Positions 18,267 to 62,760 of a stretch of 64,000 nucleotides of DNA are shown in pieces. How positions within the stretch are numbered: the stretch's first letter is position 1; every line of letters starts with the position of its first letter. The position numbers and the translations under genes were made by a program. The DNA lies in contig JAVBUN010000096.1 in assembly GCA_031555335.1 (NCBI GenBank), positions 2,893 through 66,892 on the forward strand, given 5' to 3'. The notes under the pieces were generated by a model. It did not search any database. It saw only the letters and a program-made list of their open reading frames with translations, and was not told the origin of the DNA. Source of the DNA: Microbacterium sp. (lineage in GTDB: Bacteria > Actinomycetota > Actinomycetes > Actinomycetales > Microbacteriaceae).

Positions 18267-19271
18267 TCAGCGATCCAGCAACCGGCGCGGCTGCTCGACG
18301 ACCATGTCGTGCAGCCGCGCCGTCGAGACACCCGCCGCCGCCAAGAGGGGGAGGACGTGACCGAGCACGTGCCCGTAACCGGGTCCGCCATGATGCACGA
18401 GCTGCGCCTTGGTCCAGAGGGACCCGCCCAGGACGTGCCGAGAACTCGGGTGGTCCGCGGCGAATTCCACGAAGAACGCGAGCCGTTCGTCGTCCGAAGG
18501 GTTGCTCACGCGGCCGAGATGCACGGCCTCCGTCCCGAAGCACATCTCGACCACGGCGCCGGCGCCGGTGAGGTCCGCCCAGTACGGGCCGTCCATGAAC
18601 TCGTCGCCGTTGGTGAAGACGATCCGCTGCGGCGGGAGTCCCTCATCCGTCATGAGCCGGATGACCGCGAGACCGTCCCGGGCATCGGGATCGAGGCGGA
18701 CCGAGACGGCGGCACCCGTCCGCACGGCGGCACGCGCTGCGGCACGGAGCATCCCCCGCTCGGGCTCCGGCACACCGGCCGTGGTCCCCATGATGCCGAG
18801 CATCCCGGCCCGGTAGTCGGTGCCGGGGATCGCGACGGCGAGCGCGTCGTGCAGGTGCCGTTCGAGTCCTGCCTCATCCAGCTCCGCCACCCAGGCCGGC
18901 AGCGTGGAGCGGATGTAGGCGCCGTAGGCGACGACGACCTGCACCCCGGACGCGCGCGCGATCTCCGGGAGCCCGGCGTGGTCGGGGCCGAGGCCCCACG
19001 ACGTGCACTCGACGACCGAGCGCTGTCCGTCGGCGCGGACCCGGGCGAGCTCCTGCGCTGCCAGCACCGGGTCGTCGAGTCGCAGGTTGTCGGCGAGCGC
19101 GAGCATGTTCTCGGAGAGGTAGGCGACGGTCTCGGGCGACACCCGGTCCCCCGCGGGCGCCGGCTGCGCTCCCGGCCGCTGCAGCCGGCTCGCGTCGGCC
19201 AGCAGGTGGTCGTGCATCGAGGTCGCGCCGAGTTCGTCCGCCCGGATCGCCCCGTGCACCGTCTCGATCAC
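18267..19271 (-). CDS. Phosphotriesterase-family protein (metal site degenerate)
   Basis: 'IETVHG.I...LG.TSMHDHL' PTE start; other ligands replaced (GIMG, VSVR, FTNGD, GGSLW). Confidence 0.8.
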   Translation of the reverse strand: MIETVHGAIRADELGATSMHDHLLADASRLQRPGAQPAPAGDRVSPETVAYLSENMLALADNLRLDDPVLAAQELARVRADGQRSVVECTSWGLGPDHAGLPEIARASGVQVVVAYGAYIRSTLPAWVAELDEAGLERHLHDALAVAIPGTDYRAGMLGIMGTTAGVPEPERGMLRAAARAAVRTGAAVSVRLDPDARDGLAVIRLMTDEGLPPQRIVFTNGDEFMDGPYWADLTGAGAVVEMCFGTEAVHLGRVSNPSDDERLAFFVEFAADHPSSRHVLGGSLWTKAQLVHHGGPGYGHVLGHVLPLLAAAGVSTARLHDMVVEQPRRLLDR

Positions 19272-19313
19272 CGCGTCCTCCGTGTCCGCATCCGTGTCGC
19301 CGGAATGGCTCTT

Positions 19314-19346
19314 GCGGGATCCATTCTGACATGTTTAGGATCCAAT
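19314..19346. promoter_or_regulatory. Paired GntR (VanO-like) operator A
   Basis: GGATCC cores at 19317 and 19338 (21-bp spacing). Confidence 0.75.
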
Positions 19347-19347
19347 C

Positions 19348-19707
19348 ATGACCACGATCTTCCGTCCCCTCGATGTCGCCGTCGCCGACCTCGACGCCAA
19401 GCCGCTCGCCCTCCCGAGCGCCCAGCCCCTCTCCGGCGAGATCGAGGTGCGATCGCGCGTCGAGTTCGCCAATGAGGGTCGCACGATCATCTCGGGCATC
19501 TGGGAGAGCGACCCCGGCACGTCCCGCTGGGAGTTCACCGGCCGGGGCGAGATCGTGCACATCCTCGCCGGCGTCCTCACCGTCCAGGAGGACGGCGCAG
19601 AGCCGGAGACCCTGACCGCGGGAAGCGCGGCCGTGTTCCCCATCGGCTGGTGCGGGACGTGGACCGTCGAGGAGCCCGTGCGGAAGCTCTACGTCGTCTA
19701 CAAGTGA
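19348..19707 (+). CDS. Cupin domain protein (DUF861/EutQ-like), probably leaderless
   Basis: 'GIWESDPG', 'E..HIL.G', 'FP.GW.GTW.V...VRK.YV'. Confidence 0.88.
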   Translation: MTTIFRPLDVAVADLDAKPLALPSAQPLSGEIEVRSRVEFANEGRTIISGIWESDPGTSRWEFTGRGEIVHILAGVLTVQEDGAEPETLTAGSAAVFPIGWCGTWTVEEPVRKLYVVYK

Positions 19708-19743
19708 GCCCGGATCCGGTGCGCGTGCGCCCGGATCCGACCC

Positions 19744-20157
19744 TCACCAGCCCCGGGTCCGCTTCGCCGGCAGCAGGTCGGCGACGCGGACCCTCAGCGT
19801 GTCCTCGTCGCGCGTGATCCACACCCCCGCGTCCGGCCAGTAGTCCGAGAGCAACTCGGCGCACACCCCGCACGGCTCGATGACGTGCGTCGTCCCGCCG
19901 GGACGCCGGAGCACGCTGACCGCACTCACCACGTCGGCGGGGACGCCGTGGATCGCGGCGTGCTCGATGACCTTGCCCGCGGCGACGCCCTCCGCGCACA
20001 CCGCGCTGCGGCGAGCGGAGCCGTCGACGTGGACGCCGAGGACGACGGCGCCGTCGGCCGTCCGCATCGCCGCGACCACCTCGTGCCGCCCCTGGACGTA
20101 CACGGTCTCGAGCAGCGAGAGCGCGGCGGACATCAGTTCGGCGTCGGCATCGGACAT
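19744..20157 (-). CDS. Cytidine/blasticidin-S deaminase-like Zn deaminase
   Basis: 'VCAEGVA' and 'PCGVCAELL' motifs; 137 aa. Confidence 0.85.
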   Translation of the reverse strand: MSDADAELMSAALSLLETVYVQGRHEVVAAMRTADGAVVLGVHVDGSARRSAVCAEGVAAGKVIEHAAIHGVPADVVSAVSVLRRPGGTTHVIEPCGVCAELLSDYWPDAGVWITRDEDTLRVRVADLLPAKRTRGW

Positions 20158-20183
20158 CTCGGCGGGGCGCCGCAGCAGCGGCC

Positions 20184-20951
20184 TCATGCGGCGGTGATCC
20201 CGAGGATGCGGGCGTAGTTGCCGCCCTCCACGAGCGCGCGGTCGGCGGCGTCCGGGATCGCCTTCGCGATCTTCATGCGCTCGAGGTCGAAGTCCGAGCC
20301 CGGCCACTCCGATCCCAGCAGGATCTTCTCGGGTCCGAGGCGGGCGTACGCCCGCTTCACGTCCGCCATCAGGGTCGCGGAGGTCTCCAGGTATACGTGC
20401 GGCTGGCGCTCGGCGACGATGATCGCCTCCGGGACGTTCCACACCGCACCCATGTGCGCGATGATCGTCGGCACGTCGGGGTGCCCCTTGGCGATCTCCT
20501 CGATCGCGAGCGGCGCGCAGAACGCGTCGTCGAGCGCGTTGATGAGCACCGTCATCCCGTGCTCCGCGCAGGCGCGGAAGACCGGGTCCAGGAGCCCGTG
20601 ATCGGCCACGTGGTACCCGTGCATGCTCGGGTGCAGCTTCAGCCCCCGGATCCCGGCGGCCGCCATCCGATGCACCTCGTCGACGGCGTCGTCGGCCTGC
20701 GGCATGACCTGACCGAAGCCGATGAAACGGTTCGGGTACGCGTCCTGCAGTCCGATGATGAAGTCGTTCTCGATGCGCTGGGCGAGCGAGCAGATCATCG
20801 CCATGTCGACGCCGGCGGCGTCCATACGGTCGAGGATCCGCCGCGGGTCGAAGGGCGTGTAGGCCGGGGGCGCCTCGCCCGGACGCACGCCGGTGAGATA
20901 GTCGGATCGTCCGCGCACGTCCTGCGTCGTGTTGTAGGCGTCGAGGATCAT
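20184..20951 (-). CDS. Amidohydrolase_2 family protein (metal ligands degenerate)
   Basis: 'GLKLHP', 'IIAHMG', 'VYLETS', 'LGSEWP'; N-terminal 'DAYNT' instead of DxHxH. Confidence 0.8.
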   Translation of the reverse strand: MILDAYNTTQDVRGRSDYLTGVRPGEAPPAYTPFDPRRILDRMDAAGVDMAMICSLAQRIENDFIIGLQDAYPNRFIGFGQVMPQADDAVDEVHRMAAAGIRGLKLHPSMHGYHVADHGLLDPVFRACAEHGMTVLINALDDAFCAPLAIEEIAKGHPDVPTIIAHMGAVWNVPEAIIVAERQPHVYLETSATLMADVKRAYARLGPEKILLGSEWPGSDFDLERMKIAKAIPDAADRALVEGGNYARILGITAA

Positions 20952-20991
20952 CGCAGCCCGCTCCCGTTCTCTCCTGAATGCCCATGCACTG

Positions 20992-21024
20992 CATGGATCC
21001 ATTCCGCTTGTATTAGGATCCAAT
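20992..21024. promoter_or_regulatory. Paired GntR operator B
   Basis: GGATCC cores at 20995 and 21016. Confidence 0.75.
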
Positions 21025-21025
21025 C

Positions 21026-22138
21026 ATGACACATGAGCGCACCGGCGCCGAGTCGGCCGCGGCGAACCGCCTTCAACTCGGCACGTTTGGCACGAACCTC
21101 TCCCCCGGGATCACCTTCACGACGATCCCCGGTGCGCTGACGACGGACTGGAGCCGCGTCGTGGAGCTCGCGCAGCGTGCCGAGGCGATGGGTTTCGAGG
21201 CCATCGTGCCGATCTCGCGATGGAAGGGCTACGGCGGGGAGCACAACCCCCACTCGGACGCCTTCGACACCCTGACGTGGGCGGCGGCCGTCGGCGCGGT
21301 CACCTCGAGCGCCCGCATCTTCGCGACCGTGTCGATGCCCGTGGTGCATCCGGTGATGGCCGCGAAGCAGATGGCGACGATCGACCGGGTCACCGGCGGA
21401 CGCGCCGGCATCAACGTGCTCGCGGGGTGGTTCCGGCCGGAGATGGAGATGTTCGGCGCCGAGCTCCTTCCCCACGATCGTCGCTACGACATGGCCGACG
21501 AGTGGATCGAGATCGTCACGCGCCTCTGGTCCGCGCGCGACGAGTTCGACTACGCGGGCGACTTCTTCCAGCTCCGCGGGGCGTACTCGCGCCCGCAGCC
21601 CGGCGCGAACCGACCGGCGATCATGAATGCCGCCATGTCCGGCCGCGGACTGGAGTTCGCCCTGCAGAACGCGGATCAGATCTACGTCAAGCTCAGCGAC
21701 GACCGCGCCGCGGCGACCGCCCACGTGCGGGAGATCAAGCGCCGCGCGCGCGAGGAGTACGACCGGGACATCGAGGTCTGGACCTTCGGCTACGTCGTGG
21801 ACGCCCCGACGGAGGAGGCCGCTCGCGAGTTCCTCCGCTTCTACGCCGAGGAGCACGGCATGCACGACGCCGCCGTCAACGCCCTCACGATCATGGGCGT
21901 CGAGGCCGAGGTCGCGGGGGACAATTCGACCGCCGCCCGCCGGTTCAGCTGGGTCGCCGGCGACGGCGGCGTGCCGTTGATCGGCACACCCGAGCAGGTC
22001 GCGGACGGACTCGAATGGCTGGCGGATGTCGGCGTGGACGGCTGCCTCCTCGGCTGGCCGCTCTGGGAGGAGGGGATGGCGCGCTTCGCGAGCGACATCC
22101 TCCCCCTCCTCACCGAGCGCGGCCTCCGCGCCGGTTGA
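21026..22138 (+). CDS. LLM-class flavin-dependent monooxygenase (RutA/SsuD-like)
   Basis: 'RWKGYGG', 'HPVMAAKQMATID..TGGR..IN..AGW', 'IGTPEQVA'. Confidence 0.88.
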   Translation: MTHERTGAESAAANRLQLGTFGTNLSPGITFTTIPGALTTDWSRVVELAQRAEAMGFEAIVPISRWKGYGGEHNPHSDAFDTLTWAAAVGAVTSSARIFATVSMPVVHPVMAAKQMATIDRVTGGRAGINVLAGWFRPEMEMFGAELLPHDRRYDMADEWIEIVTRLWSARDEFDYAGDFFQLRGAYSRPQPGANRPAIMNAAMSGRGLEFALQNADQIYVKLSDDRAAATAHVREIKRRAREEYDRDIEVWTFGYVVDAPTEEAAREFLRFYAEEHGMHDAAVNALTIMGVEAEVAGDNSTAARRFSWVAGDGGVPLIGTPEQVADGLEWLADVGVDGCLLGWPLWEEGMARFASDILPLLTERGLRAG

Positions 22139-22142
22139 GCCG

Positions 22143-23054
22143 TCAGGCCAGACGCAGCATCCGCGCGGCGTTCTCGCCGAGCAGGGCGTCGACCTCACCC
22201 CGGCCGAAGCCCGGGAGGGACTCCACGATCTCCGCCGTGACCGCCGGGGTGTACCAGGGAAAGTCCGATCCGGTGACGACCCGCTCCACGCCGACCCCTC
22301 GGATGAGCTCCACGACGTCGGTCGCGGTGGGTCCGGCCGAGGCGCCGATCCAGATGACGATCTCGGACAGATCGAACATCAGCTGGGGGTACGCCTCGGC
22401 GAGCGCGAGCGTGGACCGCCACGATCCACCCCCGAGGTGCGCCAGGACGAGCTGCAGGCCGGGGCGCCGAGCGGCGAGCGGGGCGAACCGTTCCGGCTCG
22501 GAGTAGCCGATCCGTCGTGAGTCCGGCCCGGAGTGGAAGACGATCGGCACCCCGGCCGCCTCGCAGGCGTCGTAGACGCCCTCCATGCCGGGATCGTCGA
22601 CATGCGTGCGGATGCCGATCGGATGGATCTTCAGGCCCCGTGCACCCCAGTCGGCGAAGGCCTCGGTGAGGTGCGCACGTGCATCGTCCGAGGTCATCAC
22701 GGCGGGGTTCGCGGTCACGAACGGAAGCAGCTCCGGATGCGGCGCCGCCATCTCGCACACCCACCGGTTGTAGGCGACGAGGTCGTCGCGGTACTGGCCG
22801 TACGCGGGCTCGGCCGGCCAGTGCCCGCCGGACTGCGGCGCGTCCGGATATCCCGGCACCTCGTAGCTGCCGAGCACGGTCGCATGGTCGAAGCCGGCGG
22901 CGCGAAGCGCAGCGAGCCCCTCGTCGACCGCGCCGCCGACGCCTGCGAGGGGGACGTCGGCCATCTCGCCGTACTCGACGATCGGGAACGTGTCGATCTC
23001 GTACCGGCCCTGCGCGGGATCGGCATAGAGATGCATGTGGGTGTCGATCCTCAT
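22143..23054 (-). CDS. Amidohydrolase_2 family protein (intact metal site)
   Basis: 'IDTHMH', 'GLKIHP', 'VFHSG', 'LAHLG', 'GSDFP', 'GENAAR'. Confidence 0.88.
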   Translation of the reverse strand: MRIDTHMHLYADPAQGRYEIDTFPIVEYGEMADVPLAGVGGAVDEGLAALRAAGFDHATVLGSYEVPGYPDAPQSGGHWPAEPAYGQYRDDLVAYNRWVCEMAAPHPELLPFVTANPAVMTSDDARAHLTEAFADWGARGLKIHPIGIRTHVDDPGMEGVYDACEAAGVPIVFHSGPDSRRIGYSEPERFAPLAARRPGLQLVLAHLGGGSWRSTLALAEAYPQLMFDLSEIVIWIGASAGPTATDVVELIRGVGVERVVTGSDFPWYTPAVTAEIVESLPGFGRGEVDALLGENAARMLRLA

Positions 23055-23554
23055 CGGCGCATCTCCGCCGACGAGTACGTCTCCACGACGGCGGTCATCT
23101 CGAACACGTTGCCGCCCGACAGGCTCATCAGACCGAGTCCCATCGAGGTGCTGCGTCCCACCTCGTCGCCGAACACTTCGACGAGCAGGTCGGATGCGCC
23201 GTTGGTCACGAGGTTGACGTCGGTGAACTCGGGCGTGGTCACGACGCAGCACAGCGTGCTCACGAAGGCGCGGACGTCGTCGAGCGACCCCACGGCGTAG
23301 CGGATGAGCCCCAGGACGTTGACGGCCGTGTAGCGCGCGGCCGCGTAGCCCTGCTCCTGCGTCACCGTGTCGCCCACCCGCCCGGGGAAGACCATGTTGC
23401 CCTGGCGGTCCTCCGGGGTCATGCCGCTGATGGTGAGGATGTGCCCGCTCCGGTGGAACGCCTTCATCGTCCCGTAGCGTTCCCCGTACGGGGGGTTCGC
23501 GTAGTCGGGGATCACGAGACCGAGCTCGCGCGCACGCTGTTCGGGAGAGGTCAT
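23051..23554 (-). CDS. RidA/YjgF family protein
   Basis: 'ELGL.IP', 'ISG', 'G.VG...T.EQGY.AAR', 'NGASDLL..VFG'. Confidence 0.85.
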   Translation of the reverse strand: MTSPEQRARELGLVIPDYANPPYGERYGTMKAFHRSGHILTISGMTPEDRQGNMVFPGRVGDTVTQEQGYAAARYTAVNVLGLIRYAVGSLDDVRAFVSTLCCVVTTPEFTDVNLVTNGASDLLVEVFGDEVGRSTSMGLGLMSLSGGNVFEMTAVVETYSSAEMRR

Positions 23555-23588
23555 GGAAGCTCCGTTCCTGGCGTAGCCACATCCTGGC

Positions 23589-23624
23589 TAGAATGGATCC
23601 ATTCTAAGCATTATCGGATACATA
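23589..23624. promoter_or_regulatory. Paired GntR operator C
   Basis: Perfect 18-bp palindrome tagaatggatccattcta (core 23595); second core GGATAC at 23616. Confidence 0.78.
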
Positions 23625-23664
23625 CCCGTGCGCCGCACGAGGTCTGTGCGGAGTGGAGGACACG

Positions 23665-28249: not shown

Positions 28250-28312
28250 CTTGGATCCAATGTATCGCGCTATGGATCCGAAAACGTTTCTCTTGTGTTT
28301 CCGCGGAGTTAC
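28250..28312. promoter_or_regulatory. Paired GntR operator D plus GlnR-like boxes
   Basis: GGATCC cores at 28253 and 28274; gtttc-n6-gtttc-n6-gttac at 28286-28312. Confidence 0.72.
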
Positions 28313-29554: not shown

Positions 29555-29639
29555 CTTGGATCCAATCTTCCTCCTAGTGGATCCCTCGCACAATCTCAGG
29601 CCGTTTCCACCTCGTGAAGATCTGTTTCGACGGCGTTAC
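29555..29639. promoter_or_regulatory. Paired GntR operator E plus GlnR-like boxes
   Basis: GGATCC cores at 29558 and 29579; gtttc-n6-gtgaa-n5-gtttc-n6-gttac at 29603-29639. Confidence 0.72.
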
Positions 29640-30283
29640 GGGGACGACTCGCCCGCGTCGTCGTCCATCCGCCAGACCGCGACCAGCCGCGGCGCGTGCC
29701 GCAGCGCGGCCGGGTCGGCGGGTGCCGCCGCATCCGCGACGATGTAGGTCTCCTCGACGGTACCGGCGAACGGATGGACCGGCACCGTCTCGTCGATCAA
29801 CGACCGGCAGCCCCACAGGAGAGGCCCGGGACCGGCGAGCACCGGGGCGCCGAGCACGACCGCCGCAGACACCGGGTCACCCTCGTCGACTCGCGCCTCG
29901 ATCGAGAGCCGGTCTCCCGGGCGACCGGGGATCCTTGCCACCAGCCACACCGCGGATGCCGCAGGAACGGGCGAACCGACCGCGATGCCGACCGGCCCCG
30001 ACGAGGTGCCGACCCCCACGGCCGCGCGCCCGTCCGCCCCGAGGCCGACCCACCATCCGACGGCGTCCTGCGCGTGCGAGAACACGCCCTGCGGGACGCC
30101 GACGTCGCCGGCCGGCGCCCGGAACCGCACGGCCACGGTGACGCCGGCCTCGTCGATCCGCAACGCCCCGCGCAGGCGACGCACGTGCACCGGTGCGCCG
30201 GCCGAGTCGGCGGGGCCGCTCGCGTCGGCGACGTCCACCGTCTCGGGATGCACCCGCGCCGGGAACGACGCGTCGTGGCTCAT
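29636..30283 (-). CDS. Hypothetical protein, possible LamG/ConA-like jelly-roll domain
   Basis: ATG overlaps amidase stop; beta-rich pattern 'GVFSH..GWWVGLGADG..PLLWG..PFAGTVEE..LVAVW'. Confidence 0.55.
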   Translation of the reverse strand: MSHDASFPARVHPETVDVADASGPADSAGAPVHVRRLRGALRIDEAGVTVAVRFRAPAGDVGVPQGVFSHAQDAVGWWVGLGADGRAAVGVGTSSGPVGIAVGSPVPAASAVWLVARIPGRPGDRLSIEARVDEGDPVSAAVVLGAPVLAGPGPLLWGCRSLIDETVPVHPFAGTVEETYIVADAAAPADPAALRHAPRLVAVWRMDDDAGESSP

Positions 30284-35428: not shown

Positions 35429-35480
35429 TTGACCTCGCGGAAACATGATGGATCCTATCATGAGAGAAATGGATCCATTT
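35429..35480. promoter_or_regulatory. Paired GntR operator F plus weak GlnR-like box
   Basis: GGATCC cores at 35450 and 35471; ttgac-n6-gaaac at 35429-35444. Confidence 0.72.
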
Positions 35481-46654: not shown

Positions 46655-46688
46655 TCGTATCCGATAGTCGAAGCTTTGTATCCAATAT
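46655..46688. promoter_or_regulatory. Paired GntR operator G
   Basis: GTATCC cores at 46657 and 46678. Confidence 0.65.
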
Positions 46689-47647: not shown

Positions 47648-47680
47648 GTTGGATCCTAACATGACGGTTCTGGATCCAAT
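47648..47680. promoter_or_regulatory. Paired GntR operator H (between reductase and GntR genes)
   Basis: GGATCC cores at 47651 and 47672. Confidence 0.78.
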
Positions 47681-47794
47681 AACGACCGAAATGGACGCCA
47701 CGCGGGAAGAGGCCTGCTCGGCACACGGGCGTTCTGGTACGTTTCCAACGCGCGGCACTGGTTGGGGGCGGCGCGTGACGCAGGAGGAAACCGT

Positions 47795-48514
47795 ATGAGC
47801 GTTGGCGACGTCGCGACGTCGGAAGCGACCGGGCATGCGCTCGTCGACGAGATCGCCGCGAAGATCCGAGCGCGCATCATGTCCGGCGACATCCCGATCG
47901 GGGCGCAACTGCGCCAGGCGGAACTGGCGAGCGACTTCGGGGTCAGTCGCACCCCGGTGCGCGAGGCCCTCCGACAGCTGCAGGCCGGCGGACTGATCGA
48001 CGTCGTGCCGAACCGCGGTGCGGTCGTGCGCGTCCCCTCCCCCTGGGAGGTGCGCGAGGCGTACGAGGTCCGCGCCGAGCTCGAGGCCCTCGCCGCCGCC
48101 CGCTGCGTGAGCCGGGTCTCCCGTGCGGACATCGAGAAGCTGCACGCGGCGAACCAGGCCATGTACGACCGTTCCCTCGCGGAGAACCAGCCCGCGCGCG
48201 AGGTCGCGCTCGACAGCCGTCGTGAGAACGACCTGTTCCACAACACGATCACGGCCGTCTCGGCGAACGAGCGGCTCGCCCGCACGATCGACGAGATCAA
48301 CGAGAACTTCCCCCGGAACGTCTCCGCGCAGCTTCTCGTCGGCGACGCCCGGCACCGCGACGAGAACTACGAGGAGCACTCCCGGATCATCGAGGCGCTC
48401 GAGCGCGGCGACGCGGAGACCGCTCAGGCCGAGATGCGGCGGCACGTGCTCAAGGCGGGCGAGCAGCTCGCCCAGTGGTACGAGCGTCGTTCGTCGACGG
48501 TCTTCAAGGGCTGA
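47795..48514 (+). CDS. GntR/FadR (FCD) family regulator, VanR-like; candidate master regulator
   Basis: 'GVSRTPVREAL', 'R..LE', 'N..FH', 'EH..I..A', 'M..H'. Confidence 0.92.
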   Translation: MSVGDVATSEATGHALVDEIAAKIRARIMSGDIPIGAQLRQAELASDFGVSRTPVREALRQLQAGGLIDVVPNRGAVVRVPSPWEVREAYEVRAELEALAAARCVSRVSRADIEKLHAANQAMYDRSLAENQPAREVALDSRRENDLFHNTITAVSANERLARTIDEINENFPRNVSAQLLVGDARHRDENYEEHSRIIEALERGDAETAQAEMRRHVLKAGEQLAQWYERRSSTVFKG

Positions 48515-48527
48515 CCGCCGCCGACCC

Positions 48528-49043
48528 TCAGCCCGCGACGACGGCGGCGCCCATGAGGAGCACCGACAGTCCCATGCTGGCCTGCTGCACACGGTCGACG
48601 CGGCGGGTGCGGCGGATGAGGATGGACGCCGCGGCGTAACCCACGGCTCCGACGATCCCGGTGGCGGTCAGCGCGGACGCCGGACCGCCGTGGTGCCCGC
48701 TCGTCGCGACCTCGGCGGCCGCCGCGGGCACGGTCATCAGGATCAGCAGGAACGCCATGACGATCGCGCCGATGGCCTCGTGGGCGCGCGCGACGCGCCG
48801 CTCACCGGCGCCCGCGCGGCGACCCGGCGCTGCGAGGGAGACGACCGCGCCGGCCAGGAGAAGTCCCGACCACGCGATGGGCGCGAGCAGGACGGCGCCG
48901 GCAGCCGCATCCGCCATCGCGACCACCATGAGCAGCGTGAGGATCAGCCCGCGCACGCCGCCCGCGTGCCGGCGGTTGGCGAGCAGGCAGCAGCCGCCGA
49001 GGATCGTCGTGCCGAGCGCGCCGAGGTGCAGCGCCAGCCCCAT
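48528..49043 (-). CDS. Hypothetical membrane protein
   Basis: About 5-6 hydrophobic segments with His/Met residues; starts 4 bp after the amine oxidase stop. Confidence 0.65.
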   Translation of the reverse strand: MGLALHLGALGTTILGGCCLLANRRHAGGVRGLILTLLMVVAMADAAAGAVLLAPIAWSGLLLAGAVVSLAAPGRRAGAGERRVARAHEAIGAIVMAFLLILMTVPAAAAEVATSGHHGGPASALTATGIVGAVGYAAASILIRRTRRVDRVQQASMGLSVLLMGAAVVAG

Positions 49044-49047
49044 CGGC

Positions 49048-51057
49048 TCAGTGCTCGGCGTGGCCGGCGTCGTGCCCGTGCGCCCCGTGAGCGGACCCGT
49101 GATCGTGTCCGCCGCACTGGCAGGCACCGGGCGCGCAGGCGCACGCGGATCCGGAGGTCGCCCCGGGCGCGCAGTGCGCGCTGGCCGAGGACGGCAGATC
49201 GAGCGACGGGTTGCGGGTGAAGAAGCCGTCCGGCTCGAGCCGCAGCCCGATGCGGTGCACGGGCATGATCGGCCACTCCTCGGGCTTCGGGTAGTGGTGC
49301 ACGCCGACGATCGGCCAGACGACCAGCTCGGCGCCGTCGAGCGGACGGTCCGCCTGCTGCCAGGCCGTGATGCCCTCCGCCTCGAGCGGTGCCTGATTCG
49401 GGTACTCCCCCGCGATGAAGCGCTCGTTCGGGTCGTAGGCGGTGGCCCACAGGTGCTTCGCCACGAACGGCGCCTTCCGGGCCACGACGCTGCCGGGCTT
49501 CGCGAACAGCCGCGTGGTGTGCGGGATCGCCAGGCGGTACGCGGTCGATTCGCCGAAGCGGTTCGTCCGGTCGGCGCTCTCGATGCGCCAGTGGACGGCG
49601 CGGGACGCGTCCGCCATCCGCGCCGCGTCCTTCTCGGATGCGATCGTCTCGGGCACCATCTTCACGGCGTTGCCGTACGGGTTGAGCTCCTCGTCCTCCT
49701 CGACCTCCGCGTGCATCTCCACGAGGCGGTTGAGGTTCCCGTCCACGGCGGTGTCCAGGCGTACGGCGAAGTAGTGCTGGTGGGTGGGCGCCTGCACGTT
49801 GGGGCTCACCATCCGGCCGAAGGGGGGCGTGAGACCGTCGTCGATGCCCGACACCGACAGGATGCCGGTGAGCTTGATCTCGAGCTCGATGCTGCCGTCC
49901 TGGTGGAGCGACCAGTAGAACCCGTAGTCGTAGTTCGCGACGGTCGCGAAGAACGAGATGACCAACCGGCGGGACCGGCGCACGTCCGCCTCACCGGTGC
50001 GGGTGTTCACGTGCTTCCACAGGATCGAGGCGTCCTCCTCGTGCAGGCAGATGCCGTTGACGATGGTCTTCGCCTCGCCCGTGCCGTCGACCACGTGGGC
50101 GTCGAAGTAGCGGATCTCCCCGAGGCAGTCGCAGCCGAGCTCGAGCGACGCCGTGAGCGGGCCCGCGCCGTACTCGCCCCAGTCGAAGAAGTTCTTCCGG
50201 TACGCGGTCGGATCGGGATCGAGGTACGGCACGTACATCTCGTTGACGGCCGCGCGGCGGAGCACCGGGCGCACCACGTCGCCGTCGCGGTAGGCGACGT
50301 CGTGCAGCACGAGGCCCTCGCGGTGCGTGAAACCGATGCGGAACGACCAGTTCTGCCAGGTGACGAGGTGCCCGTCCACCTGGAAGCCGGGGCCCTGGGG
50401 CTGGACGATCTCGAGAGGAGCGACCTCACGGTCGGGCCCCCAGGTGCCGGAGCGGTAGTTCCCGCCCTCGGATGCCATCGGGATGACACCGTGGTCCTCG
50501 ATGCGGATGACGTCCAGCGTCTCGAGGTCGAGGATCGGCACGAGACCCGCCACCGGACGTGCGTAGCCGTTGTCGTCGACCGACTCGCGATACCAGACGG
50601 TCCCCCACGACAGGCGGCGGTCCGCGAGGTCCTCCGGTTCGAAGCCGGTGATCGACTCCGGGTCGACCCACACGAGCGAGGTGTCGGTGATCCCGCGCTT
50701 GGCGAGCGCCTCGACGATGAGCGGGTGGTTCCGGGCCGCCTGCGCGATCAGCCGGGCTTCGTCGGAGGAGACGCCCGGACGCTTGGCGTCGACGGGCGAC
50801 CAGGACGCGATGGCTGCGGCGCGGTCGGTGCCAGGCGTCCACGCCGTGACCTCCCATGCCTCGTGCGCGCCCGGATTCATCACGACGAGGCGCACGGGGC
50901 GCCCCCGGCCGTCGGCGAGGGCTCGGGCGAGGTGCTCCTCGACGGCGATGCCCCAGAATCGCGGCGCCTCGCCGATCCGCGCGTCGGCGCGCACCAGCGC
51001 GATGACCTCGGCGATCTCGTCGGGGGTGAGCGGGTCGCTCCAGTGGCGCAGGGTCAT
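49048..51057 (-). CDS. Copper-containing (TPQ) primary amine oxidase with Cys/His-rich tail
   Basis: 'TVANYDY' TPQ motif, 'HQH', 'HHYP.PEEWP.MP', 'LGCDCLG'. Confidence 0.93.
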   Translation of the reverse strand: MTLRHWSDPLTPDEIAEVIALVRADARIGEAPRFWGIAVEEHLARALADGRGRPVRLVVMNPGAHEAWEVTAWTPGTDRAAAIASWSPVDAKRPGVSSDEARLIAQAARNHPLIVEALAKRGITDTSLVWVDPESITGFEPEDLADRRLSWGTVWYRESVDDNGYARPVAGLVPILDLETLDVIRIEDHGVIPMASEGGNYRSGTWGPDREVAPLEIVQPQGPGFQVDGHLVTWQNWSFRIGFTHREGLVLHDVAYRDGDVVRPVLRRAAVNEMYVPYLDPDPTAYRKNFFDWGEYGAGPLTASLELGCDCLGEIRYFDAHVVDGTGEAKTIVNGICLHEEDASILWKHVNTRTGEADVRRSRRLVISFFATVANYDYGFYWSLHQDGSIELEIKLTGILSVSGIDDGLTPPFGRMVSPNVQAPTHQHYFAVRLDTAVDGNLNRLVEMHAEVEEDEELNPYGNAVKMVPETIASEKDAARMADASRAVHWRIESADRTNRFGESTAYRLAIPHTTRLFAKPGSVVARKAPFVAKHLWATAYDPNERFIAGEYPNQAPLEAEGITAWQQADRPLDGAELVVWPIVGVHHYPKPEEWPIMPVHRIGLRLEPDGFFTRNPSLDLPSSASAHCAPGATSGSACACAPGACQCGGHDHGSAHGAHGHDAGHAEH

Positions 51058-54957: not shown

Positions 54958-54990
54958 GCGGGATCCAAAACTAACATGTATGGATCCACT
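54958..54990. promoter_or_regulatory. Paired GntR operator I
   Basis: GGATCC cores at 54961 and 54982. Confidence 0.75.
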
Positions 54991-56548: not shown

Positions 56549-56582
56549 TTAGTATCCACAGTAGCAGATATTGGATCCATTC
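56549..56582. promoter_or_regulatory. Paired GntR operator J
   Basis: Cores GTATCC at 56552 and GGATCC at 56573. Confidence 0.7.
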
Positions 56583-56661: not shown

Positions 56662-56694
56662 CATTGGATCCACTTCCTATAGATTTGAATCCAC
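56662..56694. promoter_or_regulatory. Paired GntR operator K
   Basis: Cores GGATCC at 56666 and GAATCC at 56687. Confidence 0.7.
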
Positions 56695-57415: not shown

Positions 57416-57420
57416 CGCCG

Positions 57421-57474
57421 CGCACGGACGAAGACCGGACGGCCCGCGATGGGCGTCCGGTCTTCGTCCGTGCG
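57421..57474. terminator. Bidirectional terminator hairpin
   Basis: 21-bp perfect stem between convergent genes. Confidence 0.78.
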
Positions 57475-57475
57475 G

Positions 57476-58255: not shown

Positions 58256-59970
58256 CGGACGCTCCGCGGGATCTCGGTCGTGGGCGGCACCTGGATCAGC
58301 GGCGTCGCGGCCAACAGCTGCTTGGTGTACGGGTGGGAGACGTCGTCCACGGTCAGGCGCCCGACGTCGTCGATGCGCTCGACGATCTCGCCGTCCTTCA
58401 TGACGAGCACCCGATCGCACAGCGCACGCACCACACCGAGATCGTGCGAGATGAACAGCACCGACGTCCCCATCTCGGCGTTCATCCGCCGCACGAGCGC
58501 CAGAACCTCCCGCTGCACGGTGACATCCAGGGCCGTCGTCGGCTCATCGGCGACGAGCAGCTGTGCCTCCGTGCTCATGGCGGAGGCGATCATCGCCCGT
58601 TGCTTCATCCCCCCGGACAGCTGGTGCGGGTACTGCCGCATCCGTCCTTCCGGATCGGTGAGCAGCACCTGACGGAAGCGCTCGATCAGGTTCCGCCGCG
58701 CCGCACGGCGCGGGTGGCCGAGGACGCGCACGAGCACGTCGGAGAGCTGCGACCCGACGGTCAGGGCGGGGTTCAGGGCCGTGCCGGGGTCCTGGTAGAT
58801 CATGGCGACCCGCCGGGCCATGTCCTTGCCGGACACCCGTGTCGTGAGATCGGTGCCCGCCAGGGTGAGCGTGCCCACCGACGCGGACAGACCCTCGGCC
58901 AGGAGCTTCGAGACGACGGAGGCGGTCACGGACTTCCCCGAGCCCGATTCGCCCACGATGCCCACCACCTCGCCCCGACCGACCGTGAACGAGACGTCGG
59001 ACACGAGGGCGCGGCCCGTCTGGCTGTGGCGGACGGTGAGACCGTCGACGACGAGCAGGGGGTCGCCGGCGGGCACGATGGCGGGGATGGCGGGGTCGCG
59101 CACCAGACGCGCGCGACTGACGTTGGAGCGCGGGTTCGACGCGGCGGCGAGGCCGTCGCCGATGAACAGCGACGCCAGCGAGGCGAACACGAGTGCCACC
59201 GCAGGCGGGACGACCAGCACGGGGTTGGTGAAGATCTTCCGTACGCCCTCGTTCAGCAGCGAGCCCCAGTCGAACGCCGGGCTCTGCGCGCCGAGCCCGA
59301 TGAACGAGAGTCCGGAGAGCTCGACGAGGGCGCCGGCGAAGGCCGCGGAGATGAGGATGAGGAGCGGCTCCGCCATGTTGGGGAGCACGTGGCGTACCGC
59401 GATGCGCCCGGTGGGCACTCCCATCAGCCGCGCGGTGACCACGTACTCGCGCGAGGCGAGTCCGGCCGCGAGGTTGGCGGTCAGGCGCGCGAATCCCGCG
59501 GTGTTGGCGACGGCGATCGCGAGCACGGCGGGCACGATCCCCCGTCCGAGGATCGCGGCCACCACGATGGCGATCAGCATCGCCGGGTAGGACACCAGGA
59601 ACTCGATGATACGGAGCGAGAACTCGCGGACACGACGCGGCGACAGCCACACGCCGACACCGATGCCGATGCCGACGACCCCCGCGAGGACGGTGGTCGC
59701 GGCGGCGGCGAGCATCGTCACCCGGGTGGCGACCAGCGTCCGCGCCAGCATGTCGCGTCCCAGACCGTCGGTGCCCATGGGGTGCGCGGCCGTCGGACCC
59801 GAGTTCGGATCGCCCGTCATGGTCGACGCGGCATCCGACAGGAAGATCGGGGCGAGGATCGCGACCAGCACGAGCACGCCGAACATCGCCAGTCCCACGT
59901 AGAGCAGCGGCGCGGAACGGAAGCGGATCCGCCGCGCGGTGGGGGGCGGCGGGGTCTGCAGGTTAACCAC
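58252..59970 (-). CDS. Fused ABC permease-ATPase (DppC-DppD-like)
   Basis: 'HPMGTDGLGRD', 'HVLPN', then 'GESGSGKS', 'YPHQLSGGMKQR'. Confidence 0.9.
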   Translation of the reverse strand: MVNLQTPPPPTARRIRFRSAPLLYVGLAMFGVLVLVAILAPIFLSDAASTMTGDPNSGPTAAHPMGTDGLGRDMLARTLVATRVTMLAAAATTVLAGVVGIGIGVGVWLSPRRVREFSLRIIEFLVSYPAMLIAIVVAAILGRGIVPAVLAIAVANTAGFARLTANLAAGLASREYVVTARLMGVPTGRIAVRHVLPNMAEPLLILISAAFAGALVELSGLSFIGLGAQSPAFDWGSLLNEGVRKIFTNPVLVVPPAVALVFASLASLFIGDGLAAASNPRSNVSRARLVRDPAIPAIVPAGDPLLVVDGLTVRHSQTGRALVSDVSFTVGRGEVVGIVGESGSGKSVTASVVSKLLAEGLSASVGTLTLAGTDLTTRVSGKDMARRVAMIYQDPGTALNPALTVGSQLSDVLVRVLGHPRRAARRNLIERFRQVLLTDPEGRMRQYPHQLSGGMKQRAMIASAMSTEAQLLVADEPTTALDVTVQREVLALVRRMNAEMGTSVLFISHDLGVVRALCDRVLVMKDGEIVERIDDVGRLTVDDVSHPYTKQLLAATPLIQVPPTTEIPRSVR

Positions 59971-61030
59971 GGTCGTCTCCGAGGGTGCGCGGGTCCACGA
60001 GGCCGAGGACGATGTCGATCAGAAGCGTGAAGAGCAGCGAGATCCCGCCGATGACGAAGACGGCGGCACGGATGACGGGATAGTCCTTGTACTCCGCGAT
60101 CGCCTGCACCACCACTCCCCCGAGTCCGGGCCACGCGAAGACGGCTTCGACGATGAGCGCGGAGCCGAGCAGCGCCGTGAGGATGATGCCCGACAACGTC
60201 AGCGCGGTCGTGAGGAGGTTGGGCATCATGTGCTTGGCGTAGAGCGTGACGGTCGGGAGGCGCCAGCCGCGGGCGGTGCGCATGTAGTCCTGCTCGAGGA
60301 CCACGGAGGTCTCCCGGCGGACGATGCGGGCGACGGAGGCGATGCAGCCGATGCTGAGGGCCACGATCGGCAGGATCGCGGATTCGGCGACGCCGTACGC
60401 CGGCGAATACGCGGGCGGGAGCACCGCCAGCCAGACGGAGAACACCGTGACCAGGATCGTCGCCTGGACGTACGCGGGGATGGAGGAGATCAGGCCGGTG
60501 CCGGCATTGAAGCCGTGGTCGAGCCACCGGTGCCGGTCACCGCGGGCGACGATGCCGACGGCCATGCCGAGGGCGAGACCGACCACGAGGAAGACGATCA
60601 GCGAGATGAAGGCGATCGAGATGGTGTACGGAGCCGCCGCGGCGACGATCTGGGTCGCCGGCACCCGGTACTGGAACGAGACGCCGAAGTCGCCGCGGAC
60701 GACGTTCGCCAGATAGCTGCCGAACTGGGCGTACAGCGGCTGGTCGAGACCCAGCTCCGTGCGGATCTGGTCGACCTCGGACTGGCTCGCCCCCTCCCCG
60801 GCGATCGCGGAGGCGGGGTCTCCCGGGATCAGCTGGACGATCAGGAACGTGATGACGATGAGCAGGGCGAGGTTCACGACCAGGCCGATGCCGCGCCGCA
60901 GCAGGAATCGACGCCACGCGCCGCCGAGGGTGCTGGCCCGGGGGGCCTGCGGGCCGGCCGGCGAAGGCCGGCCCGCAGGGCTCCCCGAATCGGACGACGC
61001 GGGCGAGCGTCCATCCACGGTGTTCGTCAA
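59963..61030 (-). CDS. ABC permease (DppB-like)
   Basis: 'PGDP', 'LGLDQPL', 'DYMRTAR', 'VFAWPGLG'; start uncertain. Confidence 0.88.
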   Translation of the reverse strand: MTNTVDGRSPASSDSGSPAGRPSPAGPQAPRASTLGGAWRRFLLRRGIGLVVNLALLIVITFLIVQLIPGDPASAIAGEGASQSEVDQIRTELGLDQPLYAQFGSYLANVVRGDFGVSFQYRVPATQIVAAAAPYTISIAFISLIVFLVVGLALGMAVGIVARGDRHRWLDHGFNAGTGLISSIPAYVQATILVTVFSVWLAVLPPAYSPAYGVAESAILPIVALSIGCIASVARIVRRETSVVLEQDYMRTARGWRLPTVTLYAKHMMPNLLTTALTLSGIILTALLGSALIVEAVFAWPGLGGVVVQAIAEYKDYPVIRAAVFVIGGISLLFTLLIDIVLGLVDPRTLGDDRG

Positions 61031-61069
61031 GGGAGCCTCCTCGTCGATCCGGTTCGGGATGAGGGACGG

Positions 61070-62638
61070 TCAGCCGATGATGCGCATCGACGAGATGTCC
61101 CAGTTGTTCGAGAACACCGTCGACGCGTACCCCTCACGGGCGATCACGTAGTGGGTGTCCGTGACGAGCGGGACCACGTCGACGTGCTCGAGGATGGTGC
61201 GCTGCGCATTGCCGAACGCCTCGCACTGCGCCTCCGGGTCGGCGGCGGCGAGCCCCTCCTGGAGGAACGCGTACCCCTCGGCGTTGTCGACACCGGCGAT
61301 GTTGCGGCCACCGTTCGCGGCGGTCGGCCCGACGTACGTCGCGATCGCCTGGCTGAGCGGGTTGGCGACGGACGTCGCGTTCACGGCCAGGTCCCACTTC
61401 TCCGGCTCGCCGCGCATCTGCGACTGCCAGTCGGCGGGGTCGAGCGCCGAGACCTCGACGGTCGCGCCGCCGGCCCGGAGCGATTCCGCGAGGAAGTCGG
61501 CGGCCGGGTCCCAGTTGGAGACCGTGAGGAGACGGATGGTCGTCCCGGCGAGCACCTTGGCCGCCGCGGCCGGGTCGAGCCCCGGAAGCAGGTCGGTGCC
61601 GTCGATCACGCAGTCCACCGTCGAGGCGTCGATGGAGGTCTGCGGCGTGGCGAGGCCGCCCAGCGCCGCGGCGCTGAAGCCCTCGGGATCGATCGCCTGG
61701 GCGACCGCGGTCCGCAGCTCGATGTTGTCGAGGAACACCGAACCCGCGCCCGGGGTCTGGTTGAAGATCAGCGTGTTCGCCGAGCTCGGCATCGTGACGT
61801 AGGAGAACGCGTCATCGTCCACGAAGCGCTCCACGTTCGCGTCGTAGAAGCGGGTGATGTCGATACCGCCGTCCGCGAGGAGGTTGGCGCTCGTGTTCGA
61901 GTCCGACGAGACCGTGATGTTGATGGTCTTGGCGGGGGTGCCCTCGACCGACCAGTCCGGCCACGCGTCGTAGTCGTCGCGCAACGTGTAGGTGGCACCG
62001 ACGCCCGCGGTGGAGCTCTCGAGCGTGTAGGGGCCCGACCAGGCGCCGTCGACGGTTCCCGCGGCGAGCCCCTCGAGGTCGGCGAGGCCTGCGGGGCAGA
62101 TGATGCCCGTGTTCGACTGGCTGAGTCCCTGCAGGACGTCGGCGTACGGAGCGGCGAGGGCGACGGTGACCGTGCCCGCCGCGTCGTCGGCGGTGATCGT
62201 CGGCGTCTCGGGCCCGAAGACCGACGAGCGTGCCGCCTGGGCCGCGGCGTTGTCGACCGTGGCGAAGTAGTCGAGCGAGTCGGCCACGATCGTCGGGGTG
62301 ATGACGGTGCCGTCCGCGCAGGTCGCGTCGTCGCGGATCGTGAAGACGTAGTCGGTCGCGGACGCGGCCTCCCACTCCGTCGCGAGCCCGCCGATGAACC
62401 CCTCCGTCTCACCCGGGCGGATGAGTGTGTCGAAGCCCAGTCGAGCCGCGTCCCCGTCGGAGTCCGAAGAGATGATGGCCGGGTCGAAGACGCTCGGGGC
62501 GTACCAGAGCTCGGTGTTGATGGTGTCGGTGCTGCCCGCTGCCGTCTCGCTCGTCGGCGCGGCGCCCGCACAGGCGGTCACCGCCAGGCCGACGGCGCTC
62601 GTCAGCGCCAGGACGGCGAGGGCTCTCTTCTTGTTCAC
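61070..62638 (-). CDS. ABC substrate-binding lipoprotein, family 5
   Basis: GTG start with GGAGG RBS, lipobox 'VTAC', 'LA.EW', 'F.IR...DGT', 'SGPY'. Confidence 0.87.
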   Translation of the reverse strand: MNKKRALAVLALTSAVGLAVTACAGAAPTSETAAGSTDTINTELWYAPSVFDPAIISSDSDGDAARLGFDTLIRPGETEGFIGGLATEWEAASATDYVFTIRDDATCADGTVITPTIVADSLDYFATVDNAAAQAARSSVFGPETPTITADDAAGTVTVALAAPYADVLQGLSQSNTGIICPAGLADLEGLAAGTVDGAWSGPYTLESSTAGVGATYTLRDDYDAWPDWSVEGTPAKTINITVSSDSNTSANLLADGGIDITRFYDANVERFVDDDAFSYVTMPSSANTLIFNQTPGAGSVFLDNIELRTAVAQAIDPEGFSAAALGGLATPQTSIDASTVDCVIDGTDLLPGLDPAAAAKVLAGTTIRLLTVSNWDPAADFLAESLRAGGATVEVSALDPADWQSQMRGEPEKWDLAVNATSVANPLSQAIATYVGPTAANGGRNIAGVDNAEGYAFLQEGLAAADPEAQCEAFGNAQRTILEHVDVVPLVTDTHYVIAREGYASTVFSNNWDISSMRIIG

Positions 62639-62715
62639 GTGATGTCCTCCATAGGCGATCGCGGGTGGTGCTTCGGGTGAAGGTGGAGCATCTGGACGAC
62701 TCACCACAGGAGGAG

Positions 62716-62760
62716 AGCGCATCCAATCAACGACATTATGTATCCAATCATGGATCCATA
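62716..62760. promoter_or_regulatory. GntR operator L (three cores)
   Basis: GCATCCAAT at 62719, GTATCCAAT at 62740, TGGATCCAT with core at 62752. Confidence 0.68.

Follow-up and report, generated by a model that had tools for sequence, protein, structure and literature searches.

Paired operators at 21-bp spacing and a GntR/FCD repressor of the VanR group probably unite a 45-kb catabolic island of Microbacterium sp. in one regulon

A 45-kb catabolic island of Microbacterium sp. very probably constitutes a single regulon, in which its own GntR/FCD repressor (VanR group) would act at paired palindromic boxes, and this interpretation is supported by comparative genomics. The island lies within the window, that is, the whole stretch of 64,000 nucleotides analysed here, on a 71-kb contig of an assembly of 2.69 Mb that is 82% complete. 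The original prediction had described about 40 genes, and our own gene map agrees with it, giving 40 genes in 16 transcription units. Judging from the core enzymes, the approximately 40 genes joined by the operators would serve the catabolism of an amine-type compound. The 12 paired sites claimed earlier all exist, each at 21-bp spacing (seven exact and five degenerate), and are listed here together with the regulator.

Regulator, 47795..48514, + strand: GntR-family wHTH plus FCD effector domain, predicted VanR group
Pair 1, 19317..19343: between divergent PTE-a (18267-19271, -) and cupin (19348-19707, +); exact
Pair 2, 20995..21021: between the Amidohydro_2-a/CDA-like deaminase operon (-) and luciferase-like monooxygenase a (LLM-a; 21026, +); exact
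Pair 3, 23595..23621: between the RidA-a/Amidohydro_2-b operon (-) and the RidA-b/MFS operon (+); second box GGATAC, 2/16 mismatches
Pair 4, 28253..28279: upstream of the ABC permease-permease-ATPase operon (28216 to 25400, -); exact
Pair 5, 29558..29584: upstream of PotD-like binding protein a (29474 to 28392, -); exact
Pair 6, 35450..35476: between the M24/Amidohydro_3/PTE-b/amidase-a/hyp215 operon (-) and binding protein b (35498, +); exact
Pair 7, 46657..46683: upstream of the Rieske/GoaS/ALDH/PTE-d/PTE-c/isochorismatase/GMC/amidase-b operon (46644 to 36630, -); both boxes GTATCC
Pair 8, 47651..47698: between the reductase (47646, -) and the regulator (47795, +); exact pair plus a weak third box at +21
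Pair 9, 54961..54987: upstream of the EgtE-like PLP enzyme/MSOX-like oxidase/GGT/Cu amine oxidase/DUF5134 operon (54936 to 48528, -); exact
Pair 10, 56552..56578: upstream of luciferase-like monooxygenase b (56512 to 55133, -); first box GTATCC, 2 mismatches
Pair 11, 56666..56692: upstream of an alpha/beta hydrolase (56732, +); second box GAATCC, 1 mismatch
Pair 12, 62719..62745: upstream of the Opp-type ABC transporter operon (62638 to 57476, -); GCATCC/GTATCC, 3/16 mismatches, weak

The exact arrangement GGATCC-N15-GGATCC occurs eight times in the window, compared with 0.01 occurrences expected from shuffles. The seven exact pairs listed above (19317, 20995, 28253, 29558, 35450, 47651 and 54961) have AT-rich spacers, while the five degenerate ones (23595, 46657, 56552, 56666 and 62719) keep a spacing of exactly 21 bp and contain one or two degenerate boxes each, of the forms GTATCC, GGATAC, GAATCC and GCATCC. 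The weakest of the 12 is pair 7, with 4/16 mismatches. Intergenic DNA makes up 5% of the island; all 12 sites fall in it and account for all 16 transcription-unit heads. A further exact GGATCC pair, which was not in the earlier list (19712..19738), was rejected as a member of the regulon: it has a GC-rich spacer, forms a terminator-like hairpin (dG -28.6, z -5.2 on folding) and is located between the stop codons of the convergent cupin and deaminase genes.

The pattern TGGATCCA-N13-TGGATCCA, allowing no more than two mismatches over its 16 nt, is matched by 10 of the 12 sites. In the whole 2.69-Mb assembly it has 13 matches at the operator spacing, against 0-3 at centre-to-centre spacings of 16-27 bp. 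The raw count at this threshold was rejected as a proof of specificity, because same-composition palindromes match as often or more, such as TCGATCGA with 21 matches, or nearly so, such as ACGATCGT with 12. What distinguishes the sites is their location: they are intergenic, have an AT-rich spacer and stand at an operon head. Elsewhere on the 71-kb contig, outside the island, zero sites were found, in agreement with the earlier statement that the fru, SDR and guanidine modules lack such pairs. One further genuine site, near-identical to pair 12, is present on C296, a small contig that nearly duplicates the right end of the island. The expected confinement of the motif to the island holds in the host assembly, although at 82% completeness the genome may contain sites elsewhere, and it also holds in six near-complete congeners that carry an orthologue of the regulator.

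Among 121 Microbacterium genomes, the regulator orthologue is present in eight, which are exactly the eight with clustered AT-rich pairs; that is, the motif accompanies the regulator in 8/8 genomes versus 0/113. The six near-complete carriers (G002, G016, G019, G108, G113 and G131; 2.9-4.0 Mb) have 5-8 sites on the contig of the regulator and 0-1 elsewhere, and the sites spread over approximately 30-45 kb where the island is on a single contig. In G108 the island is split over two contigs, the second of which holds the CuAO operon and one of the seven sites. G119 (87% complete) has seven sites on the contig of the regulator and two GC-rich ones elsewhere. Zero sites were found in G007 and G051, and G135 has only three scattered GC-rich matches. 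The genus-wide count of exact pairs was discarded as a marker: G089, G130, G097, G123, G128 and G060 have 6-21 of them, and those inspected are scattered and GC-rich. Since such counts are confounded, spacer composition, clustering and the 16-nt pattern were used.

Most of the individual sites recur in other genomes. Equivalents of pair 1 are found in seven congeners and of pair 4, before the permease operon, in six; pairs 3 and 5 are also kept in congeners, and the arrangement of pair 6 recurs in G019 and G108. Sites are present at Amidohydro_2-a operon heads in 14 loci, at RidA-b heads in 12 of 13, at Rieske operon heads in 32 of 58 and at SBP5 heads in 15 of 16. For pair 9, the operon head has a site in 48 of 64 loci and in 7/7 congeners. 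Pair 10 is without cross-genome support because no orthologue of its operon turned up in other genomes. Pair 11 is likewise without such support.

For the phylum, sequence within 10 kb on either side of 80 regulator loci was read, more than 112 orthologue carriers having been found. Carriers include the cultured Microbacterium sediminicola JCM 15577 and Microbacterium sp. T32, and closed genomes exist for JCM 15577 and Microbacterium trichothecenolyticum T2. The PWM applied to these loci derives from the sites of the window itself; the 8-mer and exact-pair analyses do not depend on it. Upstream of the regulator, no 8-mers are more enriched than words of the box, GGATCCAA in 67 and TGGATCCA in 56 of the 80 loci. 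Exact pairs have a spacing of 21 bp in 86 cases, 22 bp in 11 and any other value in at most four. Consequently, the 21-bp spacing that the original prediction called invariant is so within the window but not in other genomes, where 22 bp also occurs. A pair is located upstream of the regulator gene in nearly all of the 80 loci, which represent many families, and 26 of them contain arrays of three boxes; third and fourth boxes continue the 21-bp register. The consensus of 188 sites is ttGGATCCaAt, and even a 52%-identical homologue retains a degenerate pair at 21 bp.

Gene order is shuffled between these genomes, yet the sites stay with the operon heads. Pairs that remain at operon boundaries while the order of operons varies could in principle be scars left by a mobile or cassette system that reorders the operons, or the sites at which it recombines. 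This is hardly conceivable, since the sites occur at the 5' ends of operons only and never at 3' ends, and the boxes are conserved while the spacers are variable. Moreover, no integrase or transposase gene was found among the island genes, and the exact phase and palindromic form fit protein binding.

It could also be asked whether the boxes are the sites of another transcription factor, encoded elsewhere, with the local GntR protein a bystander, since they are tied to this protein by sequence evidence rather than by direct binding. The co-occurrence in the genus (8/8 versus 0/113) and the pair before the regulator gene itself in nearly all the phylum loci make this very unlikely. In addition, no second gene with a DNA-binding domain was found among the island genes besides 47795-48514. 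The island gene map and domain search therefore bear out the earlier view of a GntR/FCD gene as the sole regulator, transcribed divergently from a VanB-type reductase, the two being separated by a region that carries a pair.

The regulator belongs to the GntR superfamily and, within it, to the FCD (FadR C-terminal domain) subfamily, with Pfam matches to GntR (E 9.7e-19, residues 17-78) and FCD (E 4.1e-19, residues 88-218). Its AF2 model (pLDDT 83.8) consists of three helices and two strands followed by a helical bundle. The effector domain of the model has six long helices and a short 7-residue helix (176-182), the latter in a low-confidence stretch; effector domains of the VanR group have six helices and those of the FadR group seven. 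The best Foldseek matches are PmiR (7XP0/7XP1), 7U5Q, Atu1419, McbR (4P9F), AlkR (9ISW) and TM0439, while FadR entries do not appear before rank 41 and have TM 0.3-0.5, and the phmmer order agrees. Based on the model, the regulator would be a VanR-group FCD GntR protein, whose nearest solved relatives are of the VanR group and not of the FadR group. Among 27 orthologues across the phylum the wHTH is nearly invariant, which agrees with the invariant box. Five residues (N145, D146, H149, H195 and H217) are invariant in the same set, and the effector domain contains a predicted metal site of three His and Asp/Asn, as in TM0439, PS5454 and Atu1419, matched by pattern only (PMC7797058). At the equivalog level, NCBIfam names neither the regulator nor any of nine core enzymes, and a tblastn search with the regulator against 72,556 plasmids returned zero matches at E 1e-30.

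The literature confirms the identity of the operator given in the original prediction: ATTGGATCCAAT is vanO, the operator of the GntR-type repressor VanR in Caulobacter crescentus (PMC3300003, PMC5377333). The vanR-vanAB promoter contains two vanO copies, one beside the -35 box and the other over -10/+1 (PMC5377333). The two systems share the palindrome core TGGATCCA with A/T flanks, two copies per promoter, and a regulator divergent from a Rieske-type oxygenase/reductase operon. However, from the published description, the vanO copies flank the core promoter, so that their distance exceeds 21 bp. VanR, a vanillate-responsive repressor, acts on vanAB (vanillate O-demethylase); the island system comprises 12 promoter regions and approximately 40 genes, and its oxygenase is nearest to isophthalate and phthalate dioxygenases, not to vanillate demethylase. 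Likened by operator and published description, the regulator would thus resemble VanR proper in recognising ATTGGATCCAAT but not in controlling vanAB.

Another relative, the VanR-group FCD GntR protein Atu1419 of Agrobacterium fabrum (PDB 6Z74, 6ZA3), has the same fold class and ranks with the closest matches by both structure and sequence. Its dimer binds a short 10-bp palindrome overlapping -10 boxes, and the protein is a repressor of a catabolic cluster as well as of its own gene (PMC7797058). This palindrome, ATGTATACAT, is unlike the island box, and Atu1419 acts as a tetramer, forming DNA loops between palindromes that are separated by 109-190 bp (PMC7797058), whereas the boxes here are 21 bp apart. 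The strict 21-bp phase suggests side-by-side dimers, unlike the looping of Atu1419.

Four genes, which look leaderless, have the proximal box within 0-4 nt of their ATG and TAGGAT at -12 to -7. For example, 4 nt separate the end of the box in pair 1 from the cupin ATG, with TAGGAT as the predicted -10; the distance is also 4 nt from pair 2 to the ATG of LLM-a, and 3 nt from pair 6 to that of M24, again with TAGGAT as the predicted -10. From pair 8 to the reductase ATG it is 4 nt, and TGTTAGGAT would be the extended -10. The proximal box would accordingly be placed over the -10/+1 region, an arrangement that fits repression. Some FCD-type GntR proteins are activators, and the local protein might bind the boxes as an activator or dual regulator; the long leaders at SBP8-a (83 nt), SBP5 (80 nt) and gntR (117 nt) leave the position of the box relative to the start site uncertain. 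We consider this unlikely, because no promoter fits downstream of a box that is 0-4 nt from the start codon, as at the four genes, and because VanR and Atu1419, with the same layout, repress.

The sequence around the boxes bears on one more reading, namely that they form a promoter signature, the -35/-10 recognised by a special sigma factor, rather than an operator. TAGGAT inside the box fits an actinobacterial -10, and the spacers often end in a TAnnnT-like 6-nt stretch. Nevertheless, both boxes are the same palindrome, a start-to-start distance of 21 bp would leave a spacer of only 15 bp, a single pair serves both directions, and third and fourth boxes follow in the 21-bp register. Since the sequence also equals a known repressor operator, a sigma-factor signature is extremely unlikely.

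For the preferred repressor regulon, we infer binding, repression, a stoichiometry of two dimers and an inducer as follows. One dimer would bind each 12-bp palindrome centred on TGGATCCA; as 21 bp is two helical turns, two dimers would sit on the same face of the DNA, with three or four in register at some promoters. The proximal box would cover -10/+1 and the distal box the -35 region, so that the bound protein would block RNA polymerase. At divergent promoters a single pair would serve both directions, and the regulator would control its own gene too. A small-molecule inducer may bind the metal-containing FCD domain and release the protein, and the 16 transcription units, which would encode uptake systems and enzymes for an amine/amide-type compound, would be switched on together.

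The original prediction regarded the island as a single pathway for one inducer class. That is more than the comparison shows: there is a conserved core together with accessory operons that differ between genomes. The core, which accompanies this regulator and operator in many genera of actinobacteria, comprises a gamma-glutamyl ligase, a Rieske oxygenase, an aldehyde dehydrogenase, a Cu amine oxidase, GGT, an MSOX-like oxidase and a PLP lyase-like enzyme. The GS-like enzyme matches NpaA1 (PDB 8WWU) with 427 bits, E 1e-126, over 480 residues, and its gene adjoins those of the Rieske oxygenase and its reductase. The Rieske protein is a single subunit (Rieske/LigXa_C), whose closest relatives of known structure are isophthalate and phthalate dioxygenases and for which NCBIfam gives no equivalog match. 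Taken as a set, the NpaA1-like ligase, phthalate-type Rieske protein, Cu amine oxidase and GGT point to amine catabolism. In the core route, glutamate would be attached to the amine, followed by oxygenation, removal of the glutamyl group and oxidation of amines to acids. One island protein, hyp215 (29636-30283), has no Pfam match.

That no described pathway corresponds to the island, as stated earlier, is correct in part; the core is similar to the route, of the NpaA1/AtdA1 type, by which aromatic amines are gamma-glutamylated. The likeness to NpaA1-A5 (Pseudomonas sp. JS3066) and AtdA1-A5 (aniline) lies in the GS-like gamma-glutamyl organic amide synthetase (PMC11335346). The Npa/Atd/Tdn systems have an alpha/beta dioxygenase, whereas here the enzyme is a single-subunit member of the phthalate family. 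They also have a GATase-like gamma-glutamylanilide hydrolase, whereas the GATase domain (glutamine-amidotransferase-like hydrolase) is absent from all island genes; GGT, Cu amine oxidase, the MSOX-like oxidase and the EgtE-like PLP enzyme are conserved here instead. We know of no GntR regulator of the VanR-group type in Npa/Atd-type pathways. In the literature covered, which left out many subscription papers, no description was found of the operator with a GntR protein in Actinobacteria or of the enzyme combination.

Tentatively, the pairs could mark an undescribed pathway, Actinomycetota-wide (rhizosphere and invertebrate-gut metagenomes), for an amine or gamma-glutamyl-amide natural product, possibly an aromatic amine, with the regulator assembling 2-4 dimers in 21-bp register, a mode undescribed for the VanR group. 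In concept, this is an ordinary local repressor regulon, a familiar type of switch. Its interest is that approximately 40 enzymes and transporters of unassigned role would be tied into one inducible unit, in the setting of nitrogen-compound catabolism of soil and plant-associated actinobacteria. A reporter on these promoters, or a thermal-shift screen of the regulator, could reveal the inducer and hence the substrate. The strict 21-bp phasing and the arrays of up to four boxes offer a natural test case for cooperative binding in the VanR group, and the regulator-operator pair could be used in high-GC Gram-positives as an orthogonal switch.

Metatranscriptome contigs from two runs of one study, which are blind to starts, strand and level, may include DNA carry-over and are not used here to judge repression or leaderless starts, contain the regulator gene at full length (47764-48625) and the catabolic genes only as small fragments.

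The window lies within a 71-kb contig of an assembly of 2.69 Mb in 330 contigs (82% complete, 70.7% G+C). Genes were called by a codon-usage model trained on the same genome and named by Pfam, and the island comprises 40 genes in 16 transcription units.

Gene content of the island, window 18267-62638 (Pfam)
Hydrolases: phosphotriesterase (PTE) family (five), amidase (two), Amidohydro_2 (two), Amidohydro_3 (one), M24 creatinase-like (one)
Further enzymes: CDA-like deaminase, isochorismatase-like hydrolase, RidA (two), luciferase-like monooxygenase (two)
Oxidation and ligation: GMC oxidoreductase, aldehyde dehydrogenase, glutamine-synthetase-like ligase
Oxygenase pair: Rieske oxygenase and VanB-type reductase
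Oxidases and others: Cu amine oxidase with DUF5134 membrane protein, GGT, MSOX/SolA-like oxidase, EgtE-like PLP enzyme
Cupin and hydrolase: small cupin, alpha/beta hydrolase
Transporters: MFS, PotABC-type ABC system with two binding proteins, Opp-type ABC system
47795-48514, + strand: GntR/FCD regulator (Pfam GntR plus FCD), the only one of the 40 genes with a DNA-binding domain in Pfam

The original prediction placed two GGATCC-type boxes 21 bp apart at 12 sites of this island, and all of them are present. The exact form GGATCC-N15-GGATCC occurs eight times in the window against 0.01 expected; seven of these are predicted sites with AT-rich spacers, and the remaining five sites have degenerate boxes spaced at exactly 21 bp. 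The eighth exact pair (19712) was rejected as an operator, being a GC-rich terminator-like hairpin (dG -28.6 kcal/mol, z -5.2) at a point where two genes converge. This hairpin (19700-19750), with GGATCC in its arms, lies between the cupin and deaminase genes and is the only non-operator exact pair in the island.

The whole assembly was then scanned with the 16-nt pattern TGGATCCA-N13-TGGATCCA at no more than two mismatches, which gave 13 matches, 10 in the island, one on the small contig C296 and two that are GC-rich, and the same boxes at other spacings gave 0-3 matches. It should be noted that TCGATCGA pairs give 21 matches in this 70% G+C genome, so that the raw pair count is not remarkable in itself. 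What is remarkable is the position of the sites, all of which are intergenic (5% of the island sequence) and at operon heads. Each divergent or tandem promoter gap of the island has a pair, and none was found in the neighbouring modules or upstream of the short AraC-type gene at 62877-63335. The latter (152 aa, HTH_18 only) looks truncated and lies just past the last operator pair. As for C296 (2.8 kb), its bases 1-140 match, nearly base for base, the 5' part of the gene for the Opp-type binding protein together with its operator pair (window 62626-62745), and the contig diverges from the window beyond; its pair reads GCATCC / GCATCC, 21 bp apart. The contig stems from a second strain within the assembly or else is a paralogue of the island's right end.

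The main new evidence tying the boxes to the regulator comes from comparative genomics. A regulator orthologue (76-79% identity) is present in 8 of 121 Microbacterium genomes, and exactly these eight have clustered AT-rich pairs. Six of them (G002, G016, G019, G108, G113 and G131; 99-100% complete, 2.9-4.0 Mb) have 5-8 sites (no more than two mismatches) on the regulator's contig, spanning about 30-45 kb where the island sits on one contig, and 0-1 sites elsewhere; in G108, one of the seven sites is on a second contig, which holds the Cu amine oxidase operon. G119 (87% complete) has seven sites on the regulator's contig and two GC-rich ones elsewhere. Among genomes without the orthologue, G007 and G051 have no sites, and G135, G089, G130, G097 and G053 have scattered GC-rich matches only. 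Both the assembly scan and the six congeners bear out the expected confinement of the motif to the island, and the island of the window has the most sites of the eight Microbacterium genomes compared.

Across Actinomycetota, a search with the regulator retrieved 80 loci at 58-80% identity; the genera represented include Microbacterium, Curtobacterium, Rathayibacter, Agreia, Herbiconiux, Kineosporia, Jiangella, Nocardioides, Gordonia, Rhodococcus, Streptomyces, Actinoplanes, Nonomuraea and Pseudonocardia. In the 260 bp preceding the regulator gene, an unbiased 8-mer count ranks box words first, with GGATCCAA in 67 and TGGATCCA in 56 of the 80 loci. Exact GGATCC pairs are spaced by 21 bp in 86 cases and by 22 bp in 11, any other spacing occurring at most four times. 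The boxes are kept while the spacers vary freely between loci, and the pairs remain at operon heads despite shuffled gene order, both between genera and among the eight Microbacterium islands. Sites stand directly upstream of the regulator (65/80), the EgtE-like operon (48/64), the Rieske gene (32/58), the reductase (26/32), the Opp-type binding protein SBP5 (15/16) and RidA-b, which heads the RidA-b/MFS operon (12/13). The winged-HTH half of the regulator is nearly invariant phylum-wide, as is the box, and a degenerate pair spaced at 21 bp persists even in a homologue of 52% identity from another family. In 26 of the 80 loci the array continues in register, with a third box at +21. In 12 loci (L020, L021, L030, L032, L034, L038, L039, L043, L044, L048, L049 and L052), a TGGGTCCA-like element upstream of the regulator lies exactly 42 bp past box 2, a position where the window has none; this points to a weak fourth operator, in phase with the others, close to the promoter of the regulator gene.

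What kind of regulator is it? The AF2 model (27 orthologues, pLDDT 83.8) best matches structures of the VanR group (PmiR, 7U5Q, Atu1419, McbR, AlkR and TM0439), with FadR far lower in the ranking, and phmmer concurs. The FCD metal-site residues (three His plus Asp/Asn) are invariant among orthologues; the model has six long helices and one short, a count that alone fits no clear six-versus-seven call. The box core had been recognised as a VanR operator, and the literature agrees: VanR of Caulobacter, a GntR-type repressor, has two ATTGGATCCAAT operators (PMC3300003, PMC5377333), one immediately preceding the -35 box and the other over the -10/+1 region (PMC5377333). In the case of Atu1419, also of the VanR group, a dimer occupies a short palindrome overlapping -10 boxes, but the protein works as a looping tetramer (PMC7797058). 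VanR proper was rejected, because the oxygenase under control here does not resemble VanA and the regulon is much larger. No description of the regulon was found in the literature searched, nor a plasmid copy of the regulator by tblastn against 72,556 plasmids (E 1e-30).

For the cupin, luciferase-like monooxygenase a, M24 and reductase genes, the proximal box stops 3-4 nt short of the ATG, the starts reading (TGT)TAGGATCCAAnn-ATG, with a TAGGAT -10 element at -12 to -7 as counted from the A of ATG. A -10 element so close to ATG is the pattern of leaderless actinobacterial mRNAs, which the putative starts of these four genes fit. In many genomes the reductase start (CAT) keeps this same fixed distance to the box. 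The remaining promoters have spacers whose final six bases are TAnnnT-like, with a Shine-Dalgarno sequence after them. At both promoter types the proximal box would cover the -10/+1 region and the distal one the -35 region, which is the geometry of a repressor, and, since 21 bp is two helical turns, adjacent dimers would share one DNA face. Binding, repression, stoichiometry and inducer are steps that we infer.

Among genes kept with the regulator within +/-10 kb, the core consists of Cu amine oxidase (69 of 80 loci), MSOX-like oxidase (66), EgtE-like PLP enzyme (64), Rieske oxygenase (58), aldehyde dehydrogenase (58), GS-like ligase (55), isochorismatase-like hydrolase (40) and GGT (39), around which accessory hydrolase, oxygenase and transporter operons vary. 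The ligase matches NpaA1 (E 1e-126), a structurally characterised gamma-glutamyl organic amide synthetase for aromatic amines (PMC11335346), the nearest relatives of the Rieske protein are isophthalate and phthalate dioxygenases, and no core protein has an NCBIfam equivalog. With moderate to low confidence, the regulon serves the catabolism of an amine, possibly aromatic; the route would run from gamma-glutamylation through oxygenation and deglutamylation to amine/aldehyde oxidation. The predicted operator pairs are present at all operon heads; a single pathway for one inducer is not established, because many families of the island occur in two to five copies. The Cu amine oxidase has a Cys/His-rich C-terminal tail, and the DUF5134 gene is next in the same operon (window 48528-51057 for this stretch).

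Metagenomes from invertebrate guts and from the rhizosphere contain near-identical DNA. In each of two metatranscriptome runs of one invertebrate-gut study, a contig covers most or all of the regulator gene (window 47764-48625), the catabolic genes being represented only by short scraps, a pattern too weak to interpret.

To the left of the island, the window has a fructose PTS/DeoR unit and an SDR-TetR pair, with a GmrSD-type (type IV) restriction endonuclease gene (3741-5810) between them, and a urea/guanidine carboxylase module that includes allophanate hydrolase. All eight Microbacterium islands adjoin homologues of the neighbouring module (window 9027-18261), a link that other genera do not retain within 10 kb. 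Its two DUF1989 genes are present in all eight genomes, and most of the stretches fetched also have the urea/guanidine carboxylase, the TetR gene and the SSS transporter. Several genomes have an additional operator pair near the SSS-transporter end.
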